A stretch of DNA of 64,000 bases, taken from positions 173 to 64,172 of the forward strand of contig JBILVQ010000001.1 in the NCBI GenBank assembly GCA_044370375.1, given 5' to 3'. This DNA is from Bacteroidia bacterium (lineage in GTDB: Bacteria > Bacteroidota > Bacteroidia > UBA4408). Positions 43,412-53,112 of the stretch are shown here, piece after piece. Every line of letters begins with the position of its first letter. The stretch's first letter is position 1. The notes beneath the pieces are model-generated. The model searched no databases. It had not been told where the DNA came from and saw only the letters and a list, made by a program, of their open reading frames with translations. The translations under genes and the position numbers were made by a program.

Positions 43412-44455
43412 ATGGCAAAAAAAATTGCAAACAAAAAGGGAAAGCCGGCAAAGGATAACAAAAAGAAACCTGTAGCTGCTGCAAAATCTTCCAAAAAGCC
43501 GGCTCCAAAACCAGCAAAGAAGGCGGAAACTAAACCTGCCAAAAAAGCGGTTTCAAAGCCCGCAAAAAAGGCTGCACCTGCTAAGAAGGCTGCTGTAAAG
43601 AAGGCGGCACCTGTAAAGAAAACCGCTGTAAAAGCAAAAGTTGCCAAAACGGTAACCAAAGCCTCCAAGACAGCAAAACCTGCTCCCAAGCCGGTAAAAA
43701 AAGCAGTTAAGCCTGTAGTGAAGGCAGTTTCAAAAGCCAAGGCTACTGCCGCAAGTCCCAAAAAAGCCAAGGCCGATTTGCTCGCTAAACCGGCACAGAA
43801 AATAGCCGCTAAAGCTGTAAGTAAGCCTGCTTCTAAAAAGGAGGAGAAACCCGTTGCTAAAGCCGTGGTTTCGGTAAAACCCGAAAAGGTAATGAAACCT
43901 GCTCCCCAACCAAGTCCCAAACCTTCTGTGAACCCACGCAAAACCGAAGTTGCTAAAGTAAAGGCGCAACCAAAGAAAGAAGAGTCTATGGTGGATGAAG
44001 ATGAAGACGATAAGCGTCCAATGCCTGCTCCGGTTGTTCCAAAGAAGGAAGAAGTGGTGGTGGATAGAAGTGGTTTCTTAACCAGAACAAAGTTTACAGA
44101 TGCTGAATTGTCTGAATTTAGAGATCTGATAAAAAAGAAGTTGGAATTCGCCATCAAGGATTACGAGTTGTTAAAGGATACCTTGTCGCATCGCGATAAC
44201 AATGGAACAGATGATACTTCTCCAACTTTTAAATTGCTCGAAGATGGATCAGAGGTTCTTTCAAAAGAGGAAACAACACAATTAGCGGTTCGTCAACAAA
44301 AGTACATTCAGTCGCTTGAAAATGCGCTTATTAGGATAGAGAACAAGACCTATGGCATTTGCAGGGCAACCGGCCAAATGATTAGCAAGGAACGTTTAAG
44401 AAGTGTACCCCATGCAACCCTGAGCATTCAGGCCAAATTGGATCAAAGCAATTAA
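43412..44455 (+). CDS. DksA/TraR-family protein with a long Lys/Ala/Pro-rich (histone H1-like) N-terminal extension and a degenerate zinc finger
   Basis: The C-terminal ~110 aa (FTDAELSEFRDLIKKKLEFA...NALIRIENKTYGICRATGQMISKERLRSVPHATLSIQ) aligns with the DksA/TraR coiled-coil plus C4 region, but only one Cys is present. The N-terminal ~220 aa are AKKA/KPAK-rich low complexity. It sits in the ileS to lspA position. Confidence 0.65.
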   Translation: MAKKIANKKGKPAKDNKKKPVAAAKSSKKPAPKPAKKAETKPAKKAVSKPAKKAAPAKKAAVKKAAPVKKTAVKAKVAKTVTKASKTAKPAPKPVKKAVKPVVKAVSKAKATAASPKKAKADLLAKPAQKIAAKAVSKPASKKEEKPVAKAVVSVKPEKVMKPAPQPSPKPSVNPRKTEVAKVKAQPKKEESMVDEDEDDKRPMPAPVVPKKEEVVVDRSGFLTRTKFTDAELSEFRDLIKKKLEFAIKDYELLKDTLSHRDNNGTDDTSPTFKLLEDGSEVLSKEETTQLAVRQQKYIQSLENALIRIENKTYGICRATGQMISKERLRSVPHATLSIQAKLDQSN

Positions 44456-44470
44456 CTATTTTCCCTTTCA

Positions 44471-44511
44471 AATGCATTGCCTCATCGCTAAGGTGAGGCA
44501 TGCATTTTTTT
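44471..44511 (+). terminator. Rho-independent terminator after the DksA/TraR-like gene
   Basis: A hairpin of ATGCATTGCCTCATC, a gctaa loop and GGTGAGGCATGCAT (about 13 bp with one bulge) is followed by a T-run of 7 or more. It lies immediately before the lspA start. Confidence 0.5.
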
Positions 44512-44512
44512 T

Positions 44513-45193
44513 ATGAAGCCCTATTTTAAACCTTTTTTGCTTGTTTTTTTGGTGCTGCTTTTCGACCAAGTCCTTAAAATTTGGATCAAAACAAACATGT
44601 ACCTTGGACAAGAATTTGTTATTTTTCCCGATTGGTTCATTATCCATTTTACAGAAAACAATGGAATGGCCTTTGGAATGGAATTAGCCGGTTCGGCCGG
44701 AAAGTTACTCTTGAGCATTTTTAGGGTGATAGCCATTGGAGGCATTGGTTACGGCCTTTATTATGTGGTAAAAAAGAAATTCCATCCGGGATTTATTACC
44801 TGCGTTGCTCTGGTTTTTGCAGGCGCATTGGGCAACTTGATTGACAGCGCTTTCTATGGCGTTATCTTTGGGGATAGCTATTCAGGGGTAGCTGAGGTAT
44901 TCCCAAAGGAAGGTGGCTATGCCGGTTATCTCCACGGCAAGGTGGTGGATATGCTCTATTTTCCCTTAATAGAGGGCCATTTTCCTCAATGGTTTCCAAT
45001 TTGGGCTGGTGAAGAGTTTATTTTCTTCAGGCCTGTATTTAATATTGCGGATATGTCTATTTCTACCGGAATGGGTCTGTTCATCTTGTTTCAGAACAGA
45101 TATTTTCCTGATCAAAAAATTAAAGAAGAGGAAAAATCTACGGATGCAGGTGCAACCGAAAACAATGACGAAACGGTAGAAAAACCCCTTTAA
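44513..45193 (+). CDS. lspA: Lipoprotein signal peptidase (signal peptidase II)
   Basis: There are four TM segments, with conserved Asn/Asp residues (FTENNGMAFG, NLIDSAFYG, FNIADMSI). It occupies the canonical position downstream of ileS. Confidence 0.8.
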   Translation: MKPYFKPFLLVFLVLLFDQVLKIWIKTNMYLGQEFVIFPDWFIIHFTENNGMAFGMELAGSAGKLLLSIFRVIAIGGIGYGLYYVVKKKFHPGFITCVALVFAGALGNLIDSAFYGVIFGDSYSGVAEVFPKEGGYAGYLHGKVVDMLYFPLIEGHFPQWFPIWAGEEFIFFRPVFNIADMSISTGMGLFILFQNRYFPDQKIKEEEKSTDAGATENNDETVEKPL

Positions 45194-45594
45194 GAGGTTC
45201 TTTTTCGCTGGCGGTCTAATACTTTTTTACGCTTGTCATCAGTAGAAGAGCTTTTGAAACTCAGCCACAAAGCAATTACCACAAGAATAATTACCATTAA
45301 TATCATGAACAGAGAGGTCCAGGTACTTTCGTTGGTCTTTACTATATCCTTGGCCTCACTGAAAACCCCTTTGATGGTTTTGTTTACCCCTGCGGCTGTA
45401 TCGGCTGACGCGGTGTCTGCTACGGCTTCCTGTGCAAATGAAATTGCCCCCGTAAATAATCCCTGAAGAAGGATTAAAATACCTGAAAGTGTCCATTTTG
45501 TTGGGATTTCCCTCAGATTTAATTCCGGAATTCGCATACCTGTCATAACTTTATTTTTAGAAAAACGCTTAAAAGTACAACATATTATCGACAA
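45190..45594 (-). CDS. Hypothetical small membrane protein
   Basis: It has a signal-like hydrophobic segment (LSGILILLQGLFTGAISFAQE), a C-terminal TM segment (LFMILMVIILVVIALWLSF) and a basic tail. It converges on lspA with a 4-nt overlap. The start codon is uncertain (alternatives are MTGMRIP and MRIPEL). Confidence 0.4.
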   Translation of the reverse strand: MSIICCTFKRFSKNKVMTGMRIPELNLREIPTKWTLSGILILLQGLFTGAISFAQEAVADTASADTAAGVNKTIKGVFSEAKDIVKTNESTWTSLFMILMVIILVVIALWLSFKSSSTDDKRKKVLDRQRKRTS

Positions 45595-45666
45595 ATCAAA
45601 GAATTAGCCATATTAAAATCTAAAAAAGCAGGTTTTGACATTTTTTAAAAAGTTTTTTCTACCTTT

Positions 45667-46191
45667 GTGGCGCTTAAAAAGAAAAATGATAGGAGGGGAC
45701 GAGTAGTCCCCTCTTTTTTTTCATGCTTGCCAATGCTTAATGCTGAACATATAAATCAGTTGGTTCTTGAACATATTCACGGTTCAGGAATTTTTCTTGT
45801 AGATATTAAAGTTTCTAAAGGAAACAAAATATCTGTGTTTATTGACCGTTTGGAAGGACTGGCCATTGATGATTGTGTTGCCCTCAGTCGATTCCTTGAG
45901 GAAAAACTAGACCGCGAAGCCAACGATTTTGAGCTGGAGGTTTCTTCCCCTGGTCTTGATGCACCTTTTAAAGTGCCCGAACAATACAGCAAAGCTGTTG
46001 GCAGAACGATTCAGGTCCTTACCCTTGAAAGCAAGAAATTGGAAGGAGTACTCAAAAAAGTTGAAGACCAAACCTTATTCATTGAGCTCTTAACCAAAAA
46101 GAAAAAGGCAGCTAACAACCCTCAAGAAACTGAGGTTGTATTGCCCTTGACACAAATTAAATCCACCAAAGAATTGTTAATAATCAAATAA
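45667..46191 (+). CDS. rimP: Ribosome maturation factor RimP
   Basis: Features include LVLEHIHGSGIFLVDIKV...ISVFIDRLEGLAIDDCVALSRFLEEKLDRE and a C-terminal domain. The ORF track starts at a GTG (45667). The first 22 codons span the terminator-like hairpin, so the likely true start is the ATG at about 45733 (MLNAEH...). Confidence 0.8.
   Translation: MALKKKNDRRGRVVPSFFSCLPMLNAEHINQLVLEHIHGSGIFLVDIKVSKGNKISVFIDRLEGLAIDDCVALSRFLEEKLDREANDFELEVSSPGLDAPFKVPEQYSKAVGRTIQVLTLESKKLEGVLKKVEDQTLFIELLTKKKKAANNPQETEVVLPLTQIKSTKELLIIK
45693..45721 (+). terminator. Intrinsic-terminator-like hairpin in the leader of the rimP-nusA-infB operon (candidate attenuator)
   Basis: An 8-bp GC-rich stem (GAGGGGAC and GTCCCCTC) flanks a gagta loop and is followed by a run of 8 or more Ts on the + strand. 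It lies between a TAnnTTTG match (TACCTTTG, about 45655-45663) and the conserved rimP Met (about 45733). Coordinates are ±2. Confidence 0.45.
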
Positions 46192-46197
46192 CCCGAT

Positions 46198-47448
46198 ATG
46201 AACCACATCAATCTTATTGAATCGTTTTCTGAGTTCAAAGAGTTCAAAAGCATTGACCGTCCTACCATGATGAGTATACTCGAAGATGTTTTTCGTAGTA
46301 TGATTATCAAACGCTATGGAACAGATGAAAACTTCGATATCATTATCAATATTGACAAAGGCGACCTTGAAGTTTGGAGAAACCGCCTTATTGTTGATGA
46401 TGAGTTTGCTGAAGATAGCTTCGATTATGATGAGAATAAACACATCAGCCTTACAGATGCCCGAAAAGTTGATGCCGATTTCGATATAGGTGAAGAAATA
46501 ACCGAACCGGTTAACATGAATGATTTCGGTAGAAGGGCAGTTTTGGCTTTGCGTCAGAATTTGGTTTCAAGGGTGCTTGAACTCGAAAAAGACGGTATTT
46601 ACCGTAAGTACAAAGAAAGAGTAGGAGAGATTGTTACCGGAGAAGTTTATCAAATTTGGAAACGCGAAATTTTATTGCTCGATGACGAAGGGAATGAACT
46701 TATTTTGCCAAAAATAGAACAAATCCCTACCGATTTTTTCAAAAAAGGCGACACCGTTAAATCGGTGGTGGCAAGGGTGGAAATGAAAAACAATAACCCC
46801 TCCATTATTCTATCCAGAACTTCCCCCGTTTTTCTTGAGCGACTTTTTGAACAAGAGGTTCCCGAAGTTTTTGATGGCTTAATTACCATCAAGAAAATTG
46901 TTCGCGAGCCGGGCGAGCGATCAAAAGTTGCTGTTGAATCGTATGACGACAGAATTGATCCAGTAGGAGCTTGTGTGGGTATGAAGGGATCCAGAATTCA
47001 TGGAATTGTTAGAGAATTAAGAAACGAAAACATTGATGTAATCAATTACACCAATAATGTTTCACTCTACATTACACGTGCCCTTAGTCCTGCAAAAATT
47101 ACATCCATAAAACTGGATGAAGAAACCAAAAGAGCCGAAGTTTATTTAAGACCCGATCAGGTTTCTCTTGCCATCGGAAAAGGAGGCCATAACATTAAAT
47201 TGGCCGGTAAATTAACCGGGTATGAAATTGATGTTTACCGTGACTCTGATATCGATCAGGAGGATGTGGATTTGGAAGAATTTGCAGATGAAATTGAATC
47301 CTGGATTATTGATGAATTGAAAGCCATTGGCTGCGACACTGCTAAGAGTGTACTTGAACTCAGCCCCGAAGAATTGCTGAAAAGAACCGATCTTGAGGAG
47401 GAAACAATCAAAGATGTTCGCTCCATTTTAAAAGCAGAGTTTGAATAA
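46198..47448 (+). CDS. nusA: Transcription termination/antitermination factor NusA
   Basis: The architecture is an N-terminal domain, S1 and two KH domains (GACVGMKGSRIHGIVRELRNENIDVI, IGKGGHNIKLAGKLTGYEIDV). The length is 416 aa. It lies downstream of rimP and upstream of infB. Confidence 0.9.
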   Translation: MNHINLIESFSEFKEFKSIDRPTMMSILEDVFRSMIIKRYGTDENFDIIINIDKGDLEVWRNRLIVDDEFAEDSFDYDENKHISLTDARKVDADFDIGEEITEPVNMNDFGRRAVLALRQNLVSRVLELEKDGIYRKYKERVGEIVTGEVYQIWKREILLLDDEGNELILPKIEQIPTDFFKKGDTVKSVVARVEMKNNNPSIILSRTSPVFLERLFEQEVPEVFDGLITIKKIVREPGERSKVAVESYDDRIDPVGACVGMKGSRIHGIVRELRNENIDVINYTNNVSLYITRALSPAKITSIKLDEETKRAEVYLRPDQVSLAIGKGGHNIKLAGKLTGYEIDVYRDSDIDQEDVDLEEFADEIESWIIDELKAIGCDTAKSVLELSPEELLKRTDLEEETIKDVRSILKAEFE

Positions 47449-47485: not shown

Positions 47486-50410
47486 ATGCCCGAAAGCACA
47501 GAAAATATCAGGTTAAGTAAAGCCGCCAAGGAATTAAACGTTGGGATTGCCACCATCCTCGAATTCGCTCAAAAGAAAGGATTAAGCGTGGATTCTAATC
47601 CCAATGGGAAAATTTCCATGCAGATTTTCGAGGTTCTTGAAAAAGAATTCTCAAAAGACAAACAGGCAAAGGAGGAATCTAAGCAAAAGTCATTGTCAAC
47701 ACGCCAGAAAAAGGAGACAATTACCATTGACGAGAAAACCCCTACACCGCACAGCCACGATAAGAAAGAGGCAGAGGAAATTTTAATCAAGGATAACAAT
47801 ATCCCCTTTCAACGTGAGGTGGAAGTGCCAAAGGTTGAAGAAGTGGTTGTTGTGCCTGAGCCAGAGAGCATTCCGGAACCTCCGGAAATTATCCCCGAAC
47901 CTGTGGTTGTTGAAGCTTCTGTACCTCCTGAAGTTCCGGTACCCGCTGCCCCTGAAAATGCAGAACCTGAGGTAATAAAACCTAGAATTGAAGAAGCCAT
48001 CAATCCTAAAGTTGTTGGCAAAATAGATCTCGAATCCCTTTCCGGCAAAGGAAAATCAGGCAAGAAATCCATCAAAAAGGAAGAAGCCGAAGTGCCTGCC
48101 AAAACGAAAGCCAAGGTTAAAGAGGAACCCAAAACCGAGCCTGTTCAGGAAGTGCCGGCAACTCCTGCAGTGGTGCCGCCGGCCGAAGTTGAAACACCCA
48201 AACCCGAAGCTCCGGAAAAAGTTGAACCCGAGCACCATGTTACCCAGTACGGAAAATTAGAGGGCCCAACCATTCTTGGCAAAATGGTTTTGCCGGTGAA
48301 GGAAGAGAAAAAGAAGCCCGTTGCTTCTAGTTCCGGAAATGAACAAGGGAAAAAGAAAAGAAAACGCATTAAAAAAGGCCCACTGGGTGCCGAAGGTGGC
48401 GCTCCTGACCAAAATCAACAGAACCAGCAAGGTCAGGCAAATGCCGGTCAACAACAAAGAAGACCTAATCAAAGACCTAACCAGGGTCGTCCGCTTCCTC
48501 CCGTTAAAAAAGAACTTACCCAAGAGGAAATTGATGCCCAGATAAAAGAAACCCTTGCAAGATTAAGCGGTACAGGAAAATCGTCCTCCTCTAAATACAG
48601 AAGACAAAAACGTGAATTGGCCAGTCAGCAAGTACAGGACGATCTACAGCAATTAGAAGAAGGCAAAAGAGTTCTTCACGTAACAGAATTTATTTCTGCC
48701 AATGAGTTGGCCAGTTTAATGAACGTTCCGGTTAACAACGTTATCTCAACTTGTATGAGTCTGGGTATGTTTGTTTCTATCAACCAGCGTTTAAGTGCCG
48801 AAATTATTTCCATTGTTGCCGAAGAATTTCATTTCAAAGTTGAGTTTGTTTCTGCAGAGGCCACTGTATCGGCCAAAGAAGAAGCCGACCGACCTGAGGA
48901 TCTTACTCCACGACCACCCATTGTTACCGTGATGGGTCACGTTGACCATGGTAAAACCTCTTTGCTGGACCATATCAGAAAAACCAATGTTATTGGTGGA
49001 GAGGCAGGAGGAATTACCCAGCACATTGGTGCCTATGGGGTGAAATTGGATAGCGGAAAAAGAATTACTTTCTTGGATACCCCCGGACACGAGGCCTTTA
49101 CAGCTATGCGTGCAAGGGGTGCTCAGGTAACAGATATAGTAATCATTGTAGTGGCTGCTGATGATAATGTAATGCCTCAAACCAGAGAGGCCATTAACCA
49201 CGCTCAGGCAGCGGGTGTTCCCATTATCATTGCCATCAATAAAATTGATAAACCCGGAGCAAATCCTGACAAAATCAGAGAGGAGCTTTCTGCAATGAAC
49301 ATTTTGGTGGAAGAATGGGGAGGAAAATACCAGTGTCAGGAAATTTCAGCTAAAAAAGGCACCAACATGGATGTTCTCCTAGAAAAAGTTCTTCTTGAAG
49401 CCGAAATGCTTGATTTAAAGGCCAATGCTAAAAAGAATGCCATTGGTACCGTGATAGAATCTTCATTAGATAAAGGACGTGGATATGTAACCACTGTACT
49501 TATTCAATCCGGAACACTAAAAATGGGTGATACCATGCTGGCCGGTTGTTACAGCGGTAAGGTAAAAGCAATGTTCAACGAAAGAGGAATCACCGTAAAA
49601 GAGGCCGGACCTTCAACACCTGTGTTGTTGCTCGGACTTTCAGGTGCTCCTACCGCAGGAGATACCTTTAAAGTAATGGATGATGAAAGGGAAGCCAAAG
49701 AAATTGCAGCCAAAAGGCTTCAGTTATTGCGTGAGCAAGGTTACCGAACACAAAAACATATTACGTTGGATGAAATTGGCCGAAGATTGGCCATTGGCGA
49801 CTTTAAGGAACTAAACATCATTGTAAAAGGAGATGTGGATGGTTCTGTTGAAGCGTTAACCGATTCATTGTTGAAATTAACCACCGAAAAGGTTCAGGTA
49901 AATGTGATTCACAAATCGGTTGGACAGGTAACGGAATCCGATGTTTTGCTGGCTTCTGCCTCTAATGCCATTATTGTAGCATTCCAGGTTCGTCCGTCTG
50001 CCTCAGCAAGAAAACTGGCCGAGCAGGAACAAATCGATATACGGATGTACTCTGTAATCTACGATGCCATCAATGAGGTGAAATCGGCCATGGAGGGAAT
50101 GTTGGCACCTACTTTTGAGGAAAAAATCACCTGTAACATCGAAATTAGGGATGTTTTCAAGATTTCTAAGGTGGGAACCATTGCAGGATGTATGGTTTTG
50201 GACGGAAAAGTCAACCGAAACACAAAAGTCAGGGTAATCCGCGATGGAATCGTGGTTTATACGGGCGAACTGGGCTCACTGAAAAGGTTTAAGGACGATG
50301 TGAAGGAAGTTGCCTCCGGATATGAGTGCGGTTTGAACATCAATAATTTCAACGATATCAAGGTTGGAGACATCATAGAAGGCTACGAAATGGTAGAAAT
50401 GAAAAGATAA
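47486..50410 (+). CDS. infB: Translation initiation factor IF-2
   Basis: The G-domain is [21 protein letters not shown]...[30 protein letters not shown]...NKIDK. The N-terminal ~380 aa are low-complexity P/E/K-rich. The length is 974 aa. Confidence 0.9.
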
Positions 50411-53055: not shown

Positions 53056-53071
53056 ACTTTATTAGAAATTC

Positions 53072-53103
53072 AAAAAGAGAGACTTGGTTCTCTCTTTTTT
53101 TTT
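53072..53103 (+). terminator. Rho-independent terminator after tsf
   Basis: The stem is AAAAAGAGAGA and TCTCTCTTTTT around a cttggt loop, followed by a T-run of about 9. It lies between tsf and pyrH. Confidence 0.5.
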
Positions 53104-53112
53104 AACCTGATT

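Follow-up and report, generated by a model that had tools for sequence, protein, structure and literature searches.

A terminator-like hairpin in the rimP-nusA-infB leader of a Bacteroidia bacterium: a probable Bacteroidota form of the rimP-leader attenuator

Leader attenuators of the rimP-nusA-infB operon

Of all attenuators, the "rimP-leader" has been called the most ubiquitous (Naville & Gautheret 2010, Genome Biol 11:R97, PMC2965389). It is a short terminator, located 4-130 nt from the gene, with an unusually conserved GGGc..gCCC stem motif, rich in G on the 5' arm and in C on the 3' arm, and followed by a U stretch; no antiterminator is present and NusA was proposed as the effector. Cytophaga hutchinsonii (..AAAAGAGGGGACTGTGTCCCCTCTTTTGTTT) and Bacteroides thetaiotaomicron are among the species listed in Supplementary data 1 of that study. 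In Bacillus subtilis, NusA-stimulated intrinsic termination in the nusA leader autoregulates nusA (Mondal et al. 2016, as cited in PMC12288461), and NusA-dependent terminators in this organism have a weak hairpin and/or an interrupted distal U tract (PMC8060035). In Flavobacterium psychrophilum, a 58-nt rimP 5' UTR contains GAGGGAAGC-ATT-GCTTCCCTC-TTTTTAT (Guerin et al. 2021, PMC9723704 Table S7), a structured element that is conserved in Flavobacteriaceae and has no match in Rfam, and which the authors did not link to the rimP-leader of 2010. In the B. thetaiotaomicron transcriptome papers that were checked, rimP and nusA are absent from the main text, and no experiment showing termination at the rimP-leader site or its dependence on NusA was found in the literature on Bacteroidota.

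The window analysed here is the whole 64-kb stretch of Bacteroidia DNA, in which a single hairpin lies directly upstream of rimP-nusA-infB. As in the rimP-leader of 2010, its core is G-rich/C-rich, a U stretch follows and there is no antiterminator; the published C. hutchinsonii leader (GAGGGGAC..GTCCCCTCTTTTG) has a stem and tail identical to those of the window. The window core is GGGGAC/GUCCCC, compared with GGGc/gCCC in the general rimP-leader, and the lineage of the window has an uninterrupted T8-T12 tail, whereas most Bacteroidota have TTTT(A/G)TT. Judged by these sequence features, the window element is the already published rimP-leader attenuator in its Bacteroidota form, and is not new. 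The first-pass annotation of this DNA had considered the element unannotated, which is correct for Rfam and for the genome annotation, but the novelty this implied does not stand, as the attenuator was published in 2010 with Bacteroidetes included. The same annotation had drawn an analogy with autoregulation by NusA at leader terminators, which agrees with PMC2965389 and PMC12288461, and may extend to Bacteroidota.

The gammaproteobacterial rimP leader (Rfam RF01770) belongs to the same operon and presumably has the same role, and the window hairpin corresponds to its 3' hairpin (GGGC..GCCC, then U7). However, RF01770 spans ~102 nt and comprises two hairpins, its upstream part being a CCCCG..CGGGG terminator/antiterminator unit, whereas the window has a single hairpin. 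No match to RF01770 was obtained at E <= 10 in 44000-47000 and its gathering score of 47 bits was not reached in the window; E. coli, the positive control, scored 102 bits. The Rfam model is gammaproteobacterial only, and the Bacteroidota form has therefore never been annotated. None of the Rfam families reached its gathering score in the whole 64-kb window, and the sub-threshold matches of 44000-47000 (E <= 10) to MicC, STnc290 and the L20 leader were rejected as generic terminator matches to unrelated terminator-containing sRNAs and leaders.

The B. subtilis nusA leader resembles the window leader in being an attenuator without an antiterminator, and termination there has been experimentally shown, according to PMC12288461. 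It is ~180 nt long (PMC2965389), whereas the window leader would be ~60 nt, with a promoter-proximal, strong-looking terminator. The F. psychrophilum element comes from the same phylum as the window, but the inner stem sequences of the two differ.

The operon and its neighbourhood

The first gene of the operon, rimP (45733..46191, + strand), encodes 152 aa plus a stop, with Pfam RimP_N and RimP C-terminal domains, and homologues of 141-157 aa align from the Met at ATG 45733. It is followed by nusA (46198..47448, +; 416 aa; Pfam NusA_N, S1 and KH), the presumed feedback regulator, and by infB (47486..50410, +), which encodes IF2 of 974 aa according to the ORF list, with IF2 Pfam domains at the same position in relatives. 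Upstream, lspA (+) ends at 45193, and a conserved ORF of 118 aa that belongs to no Pfam family (45190..45546, minus strand) lies between lspA and rimP, occupying the same place in five related contigs (L029-L033). This ORF is divergent from rimP and, therefore, 45547-45732 is a divergent promoter region in which neither strand has a gene ending at the hairpin.

Further upstream, 43412-44455 (+) encodes a 347-aa protein with a long, repetitive, Lys/Ala/Pro-rich N-terminal part of histone-H1-like composition and a C-terminal DksA/TraR C4 zinc finger (Pfam E = 4.6e-6); the gene is syntenic in close relatives, between ileS and lspA. In E. coli, the initiator tRNA gene metY lies upstream of rimP. 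A metY-like arrangement was considered and rejected, as there is no tRNA gene in the whole 64-kb window and locus L004 carries tRNA-Gln, not tRNA-fMet. At L004, tRNA-Gln(UUG) (2840-2915) ends ~40 nt upstream of the leader hairpin, with no TAnnTTTG box, a layout similar to metY-rimP of E. coli except for the identity of the tRNA; in L026 and L027, tRNA-Gln is found ~2 kb upstream.

Promoter box and leader hairpin

A -7 promoter box of the Bacteroidota type (TAnnTTTG), TACCTTTG, is present at 45660..45667 (+) and is presumed to be active as a promoter. From its position, the rimP 5' UTR would be ~58-61 nt long (45673..45732, +; start approximate). The box is only ~25 nt from the stem in the window, and the spacer sequence differs among loci. 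The region 45660-45735 (+) reads TACCTTTG-TGGCGCTTAAAAAGAAAAATGATAG-GAGGGGAC-GAGTA-GTCCCCTC-TTTTTTTT-CATGCTTGCCA-ATG. The leader hairpin (45691..45715, +) has a perfect 8-bp core, with GAGGGGAC at 45693-45700 pairing with GTCCCCTC at 45706-45713 around the loop GAGTA; in a consensus scan, the stem including flanking pairs was 10 bp, 6 of them G-C, with a 5-nt loop (45691-45715). Immediately 3' of the stem is a U tract, T8 (45714..45721, +), which ends 11 nt short of the rimP ATG. These are the 8-bp GC stem and the run of at least eight Ts that the first-pass annotation had reported on the coding strand, downstream of a TAnnTTTG match; the match is indeed upstream of the hairpin, although it had been placed at about 45655-45663, which is wrong.

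The leader shows the features of an intrinsic terminator, namely a G+C-rich stem with a short loop and, directly 3' of it, a U tract, and premature 3' ends at the U tract would be expected at ~45720-45722. An A tract lies 5' of the stem, and the reverse strand is also weakly terminator-like. Folding with RNAfold, which had been suggested at the outset, gave -26.1 kcal/mol for 45668-45745, compared with -16.4 +/- 3.3 for shuffles (z = -2.99), with the hairpin retained in the centroid structure; the 9-bp hairpin by itself has -17.2 kcal/mol. In the consensus scan, the rimP leader hairpin ranked top on the + strand of 43-52 kb in both pair number and G-C pairs. A stricter scan of both strands of the 64 kb (perfect 8 bp, >=6 G/C, loop of 3-8, >=7/8 T) returned the rimP leader as the sole site on either strand of the window, compared with a mean of 0.02 in 100 Markov-1 simulated windows.

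Within the leader, no conserved antiterminator or larger sensing structure was found. A potential -33 element, TTTG at 45634-45637, is 22 nt upstream of the -7 box and is not claimed because L031 and L033 do not share it. The outer pairing of 45668-45673 with 45725-45732 in the minimum-energy fold is also not conserved in L031/L033 and is probably upstream of the transcription start site (TSS), and was therefore rejected. A uORF of 5 codons (45723-45740, +; ATG CTT GCC AAT GCT TAA), which begins just past the U tract and runs across the rimP ATG in a different frame, was rejected, since it is not conserved in L029-L033.

Conservation and covariation across Bacteroidota

The leader was compared at 33 loci, of which 28 came from a scan of species-representative genomes (RimP 36-49% identical; Bacteroidales, Prevotella, Flavobacteriales and Cryomorphaceae) and 5 were close-relative contigs (RimP 74-83%). 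A hairpin with -12 to -21 kcal/mol and a U-rich tail is found at all 33 loci, and the distance from stem to ATG is 13-42 nt. The TAnnTTTG box is present upstream of the stem in 32/33 loci, 10-57 nt away (mostly 20-28), the exception being L004. Close relatives have GAGGGGAC-GA(G/A)TA-GTCCCCTC followed by T8-T12, and most other loci have (G)AGGGG(A/G)C..GUCCCCU(C) followed by UUUU(A/G)UU, with tails of TTTT(A/G)TT or TTTTTAT in distant leaders. One locus, L014 (CAVDAU010000053.1), is titled Streptococcaceae bacterium, yet its RimP is of the Bacteroidota type (39% identical), and both a TAnnTTTG box and the leader hairpin of Bacteroidota are present; this contig is likely to be mis-binned or contaminating.

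A MAFFT alignment of the raw leaders was discarded, as the varying loop lengths had led to misalignment of the 5' arm, and was replaced by an equal-length seed and by an alignment of 25 distinct leaders that was anchored by hand, with trimmed loops, a procedure that biases the latter alignment towards structure. In this hand-anchored, structure-biased alignment of 25 leaders, pairing was found in 98.5% of cells, compared with 47-70% in slid controls, both-sided (compensatory) changes occurred in 4/8 pairs, two central G-C pairs were invariant and the observed covariation score was reached by 0/500 shuffles. Conservation and covariation of the hairpin, whose absence the first-pass annotation would have taken as evidence against its proposal, are thus present, in 33/33 loci and in 4/8 pairs, respectively. 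Across the Bacteroidota orders, the core G-C was never flipped to C-G, despite RimP falling to 36% identity, and the stem is conserved far beyond what base pairing requires. Such near-invariance of the stem suggests that more than the structure of a simple terminator is being constrained.

Specificity to rimP

A covariance model (R1) was built from 8 leaders and run over 257 kb, comprising the window, the 33 related loci and an E. coli control locus. The window leader was matched with 55.9 bits (E = 9e-13), and all matches with E < 0.01 in the 257 kb were to the rimP-upstream site or its other-strand mirror. The best non-rimP match, at 53063-53108, was to a weak bidirectional terminator-like hairpin, AAAAAGAGAG..CTCTCTTTTTTTTT (18.6 bits, E = 0.15). 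R1 gave no match to the Prevotella-type stems (L007, L009, L015) or to E. coli, and by this measure the leaders that it detects are related to these by architecture and not by detectable sequence homology.

The exact pattern GAGGGGAC-N3-7-GTCCCCTCTTTT was also searched for in metagenomes and gave at least 128 matches in at least 120 stretches. Among the matches listed, a RimP ORF was directly downstream in 104 of the 122 that could be evaluated; 6 were too near a contig end for evaluation, 5 were mirrors of a rimP-oriented site at the same locus and 13 were elsewhere, some of these being ordinary 3' terminators. A TAnnTTTG box occurred within 60 nt in 94 of the 104 rimP-linked sites among the matches listed, in which the distance from box end to stem had a median of 26 nt and was mostly 25-29 nt. 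At L129 (2312-2335), an identical 20-nt hairpin pattern forms a two-way terminator right after a GroEL-like gene ending ..GGMGGMGDMY, which shows that rimP leaders are not alone in having this sequence. In L111 (minus-strand match, 1539-1562), an ORF matching an internal, C-terminal portion of IF2 comes directly after the leader hairpin, and neither rimP nor nusA intervenes; this arrangement is probably a misassembly or deletion in the metagenome contig. The leader sequences collected, at least 100 in number, would be enough to seed an Rfam family for the Bacteroidota form.

Proposed mechanism of attenuation

Set beside the observed anatomy of the element, its place downstream of a promoter box, its conservation and covariation and its specificity to rimP, the reading that we favour, and regard as probable, is that the element is a transcription attenuator, consisting solely of an intrinsic terminator in the short rimP-nusA-infB 5' UTR, with read-through likely set by NusA. 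Transcription would start a few bases past the TACCTTTG box and, ~18-20 nt on, the RNA would form the GAGGGGAC/GUCCCCUC hairpin with U8 behind it. Some of the polymerases would then drop off with a transcript of ~45-50 nt, short of the rimP ATG at 45733. NusA would stimulate this hairpin-dependent termination, such that more NusA would lead to less read-through into rimP-nusA-infB, giving negative feedback. There is no competing antiterminator, and therefore the terminated fraction would most likely be set by NusA. Both termination at the leader hairpin and its response to NusA in Bacteroidota are proposed by analogy with B. subtilis and E. coli.

Some features of the locus fit poorly with attenuation by NusA. 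The perfect stem and uninterrupted T8-T12 of the window and its close relatives look strong and factor-independent, unlike the NusA-dependent B. subtilis type (PMC8060035), and a strong-looking terminator stands ahead of essential genes that need read-through. Most other Bacteroidota leaders do carry an interrupted tail, TTTT(A/G)TT. The scientific gain from the window leader is small: it is a further case of an attenuator that the 2010 study had called the most widespread in bacteria and had already listed for Bacteroidetes species. The question that it raises is how termination at the rimP-leader hairpin is tuned, and the reason for the frozen stem sequence.

In Bacteroidota, the leader terminator has a nearly fixed, promoter-proximal position, with a free spacer sequence and an almost invariant stem, which, from the spacing of the -7 box, would begin about 18-22 nt past the predicted TSS. 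A speculative and rather unlikely extension of the attenuator proposal is that the fixed promoter-proximal leader serves as a kinetic sensor of NusA loading, or the invariant stem as a sequence-specific operator. As a kinetic sensor, the leader would terminate those polymerases that had exchanged sigma for NusA by ~+45, and the rest would read through. If true, either idea would mean that a generic terminator has become a dosage sensor dedicated to the transcription-translation machinery.

Alternative roles of the hairpin

It is possible, but unlikely, that the hairpin acts mainly after transcription, as a 5'-proximal stem-loop that would stabilise the rimP-nusA-infB mRNA with little or no termination, and that the U/A-rich stretch would provide an unstructured ribosome landing site in a phylum largely without Shine-Dalgarno initiation. 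The hairpin is near the predicted 5' end of the transcript, and the tail and the spacer to the ATG are A/U-rich in most loci, but the stem is ~18-20 nt from the predicted TSS and not at the extreme 5' end of the mRNA, where protective stem-loops are usually found. In F. psychrophilum, the region is annotated as the rimP 5' UTR (PMC9723704) and is, therefore, carried on the mRNA in this species, which is the best available evidence for the hairpin being inside the transcript in Bacteroidota. Nevertheless, the same G-rich/C-rich/U layout occurs 4-130 nt upstream of rimP in phyla that use Shine-Dalgarno initiation (PMC2965389), and the B. subtilis nusA leader works via termination, as stated in PMC12288461; both observations argue against a mainly post-transcriptional role.

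The hairpin may instead be a sequence-specific protein operator, in which the NusA KH domains, RimP, IF2 or a ribosomal protein would read GGGG/CCCC, and protein binding, rather than general stimulation by NusA, would decide termination or translation. This appears quite improbable on the sequence evidence. The invariance of the two central G-C pairs and the lack of any core G-C to C-G flip, down to 36% RimP identity, do point in this direction, and Naville & Gautheret argued likewise from the conservation of the stem (PMC2965389). However, Prevotella-type leaders alter the inner pairs, with G-U at one core position at which L009 also has A-U, and the stem of L016 is wholly different. Moreover, intrinsic terminators in general favour G on the 5' arm and C on the 3' arm at the base of the stem, and the identical 20-nt hairpin is an ordinary terminator after groEL in L129.

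That the hairpin is the terminator of a neighbouring unit, or a bidirectional insulator, located before rimP by chance is very unlikely. The A tract before the stem and the weakly terminator-like reverse strand would suit such a role, as would L004, in which tRNA-Gln ends ~40 nt upstream and there is no -7 box. In the window and close relatives, however, the upstream gene is divergent and nothing ends there on either strand, a -7 box lies between the upstream gene and the hairpin in 32/33 loci and in 94/104 metagenome sites among the matches listed, and the hairpin goes with rimP whatever gene is upstream. Both a neighbour's terminator and a real coding extension of RimP, which is considered below, are effectively excluded.

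The RimP start codon

The ORF list starts rimP at GTG 45667, giving 174 aa, and has an in-frame ATG at 45733, giving 152 aa. The 22 additional codons (45667..45732, +; MALKKKNDRRGRVVPSFFSCLP) result from translating the end of the -7 box together with the hairpin and T tract, the last G of the TACCTTTG box being the first base of the GTG. A homologue search with the 174-aa ORF as query gave 62 homologues. Those 70-83% identical are 133-152 aa in length and cover the query solely from the ATG onward, and the 22-aa extension is shared by P0001 alone, which is 99% identical and has the same 174-aa call. In the alignment, homologues start at the Met equivalent to 45733, with the 151-152-aa proteins P0002, P0003, P0004 and P0006 starting at the ATG; the Pfam RimP match begins at residue 35 of the 174-aa ORF, and GTG 45667 is GCA in the close relative L029. 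Since homologues start at the ATG and the extension is not conserved, the GTG 45667 start is, from the sequences compared, a mis-call and a gene-calling artefact, with RimP beginning at 45733. This agrees with the first-pass annotation, which had placed the conserved RimP Met at about 45733, had judged the ORF-track start to be wrong and the extension non-native, and would have abandoned this view had orthologues shared the 22 aa; the 70-83% identical homologues are without them.

It is scarcely credible that GTG 45667 is the true start and that the hairpin region encodes a real RimP N-terminal extension. The reading frame is uninterrupted and P0001 has the same call, but the close homologues are shorter or start at the ATG, the GTG is missing in L029, the start codon overlaps the promoter box and the extensions carried by other database entries have unrelated sequences and likewise come from translating the leader.

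The practical value of these observations is for annotation, where Rfam lacks the Bacteroidota form and gene callers repeatedly take a TTG or GTG in the TAnnTTTG box as the rimP start, producing a false N-terminal extension. Judged from the entries compared, the false RimP extension is a recurrent gene-calling artefact in public protein databases. In P0047 and P0043, reading of the DNA showed that a TTG inside the TAnnTTTG box had been called as the start and the leader hairpin translated, to RGRGSPLFLL and KRDMVPFFI. The false starts lie at 45667 in the window and, with TTG in the -7 box, at L155 1501 and L157 1501, and the three extensions read ..GRVVPSFF.., ..RGRGSPLFLL.. and ..KRDMVPFFI...
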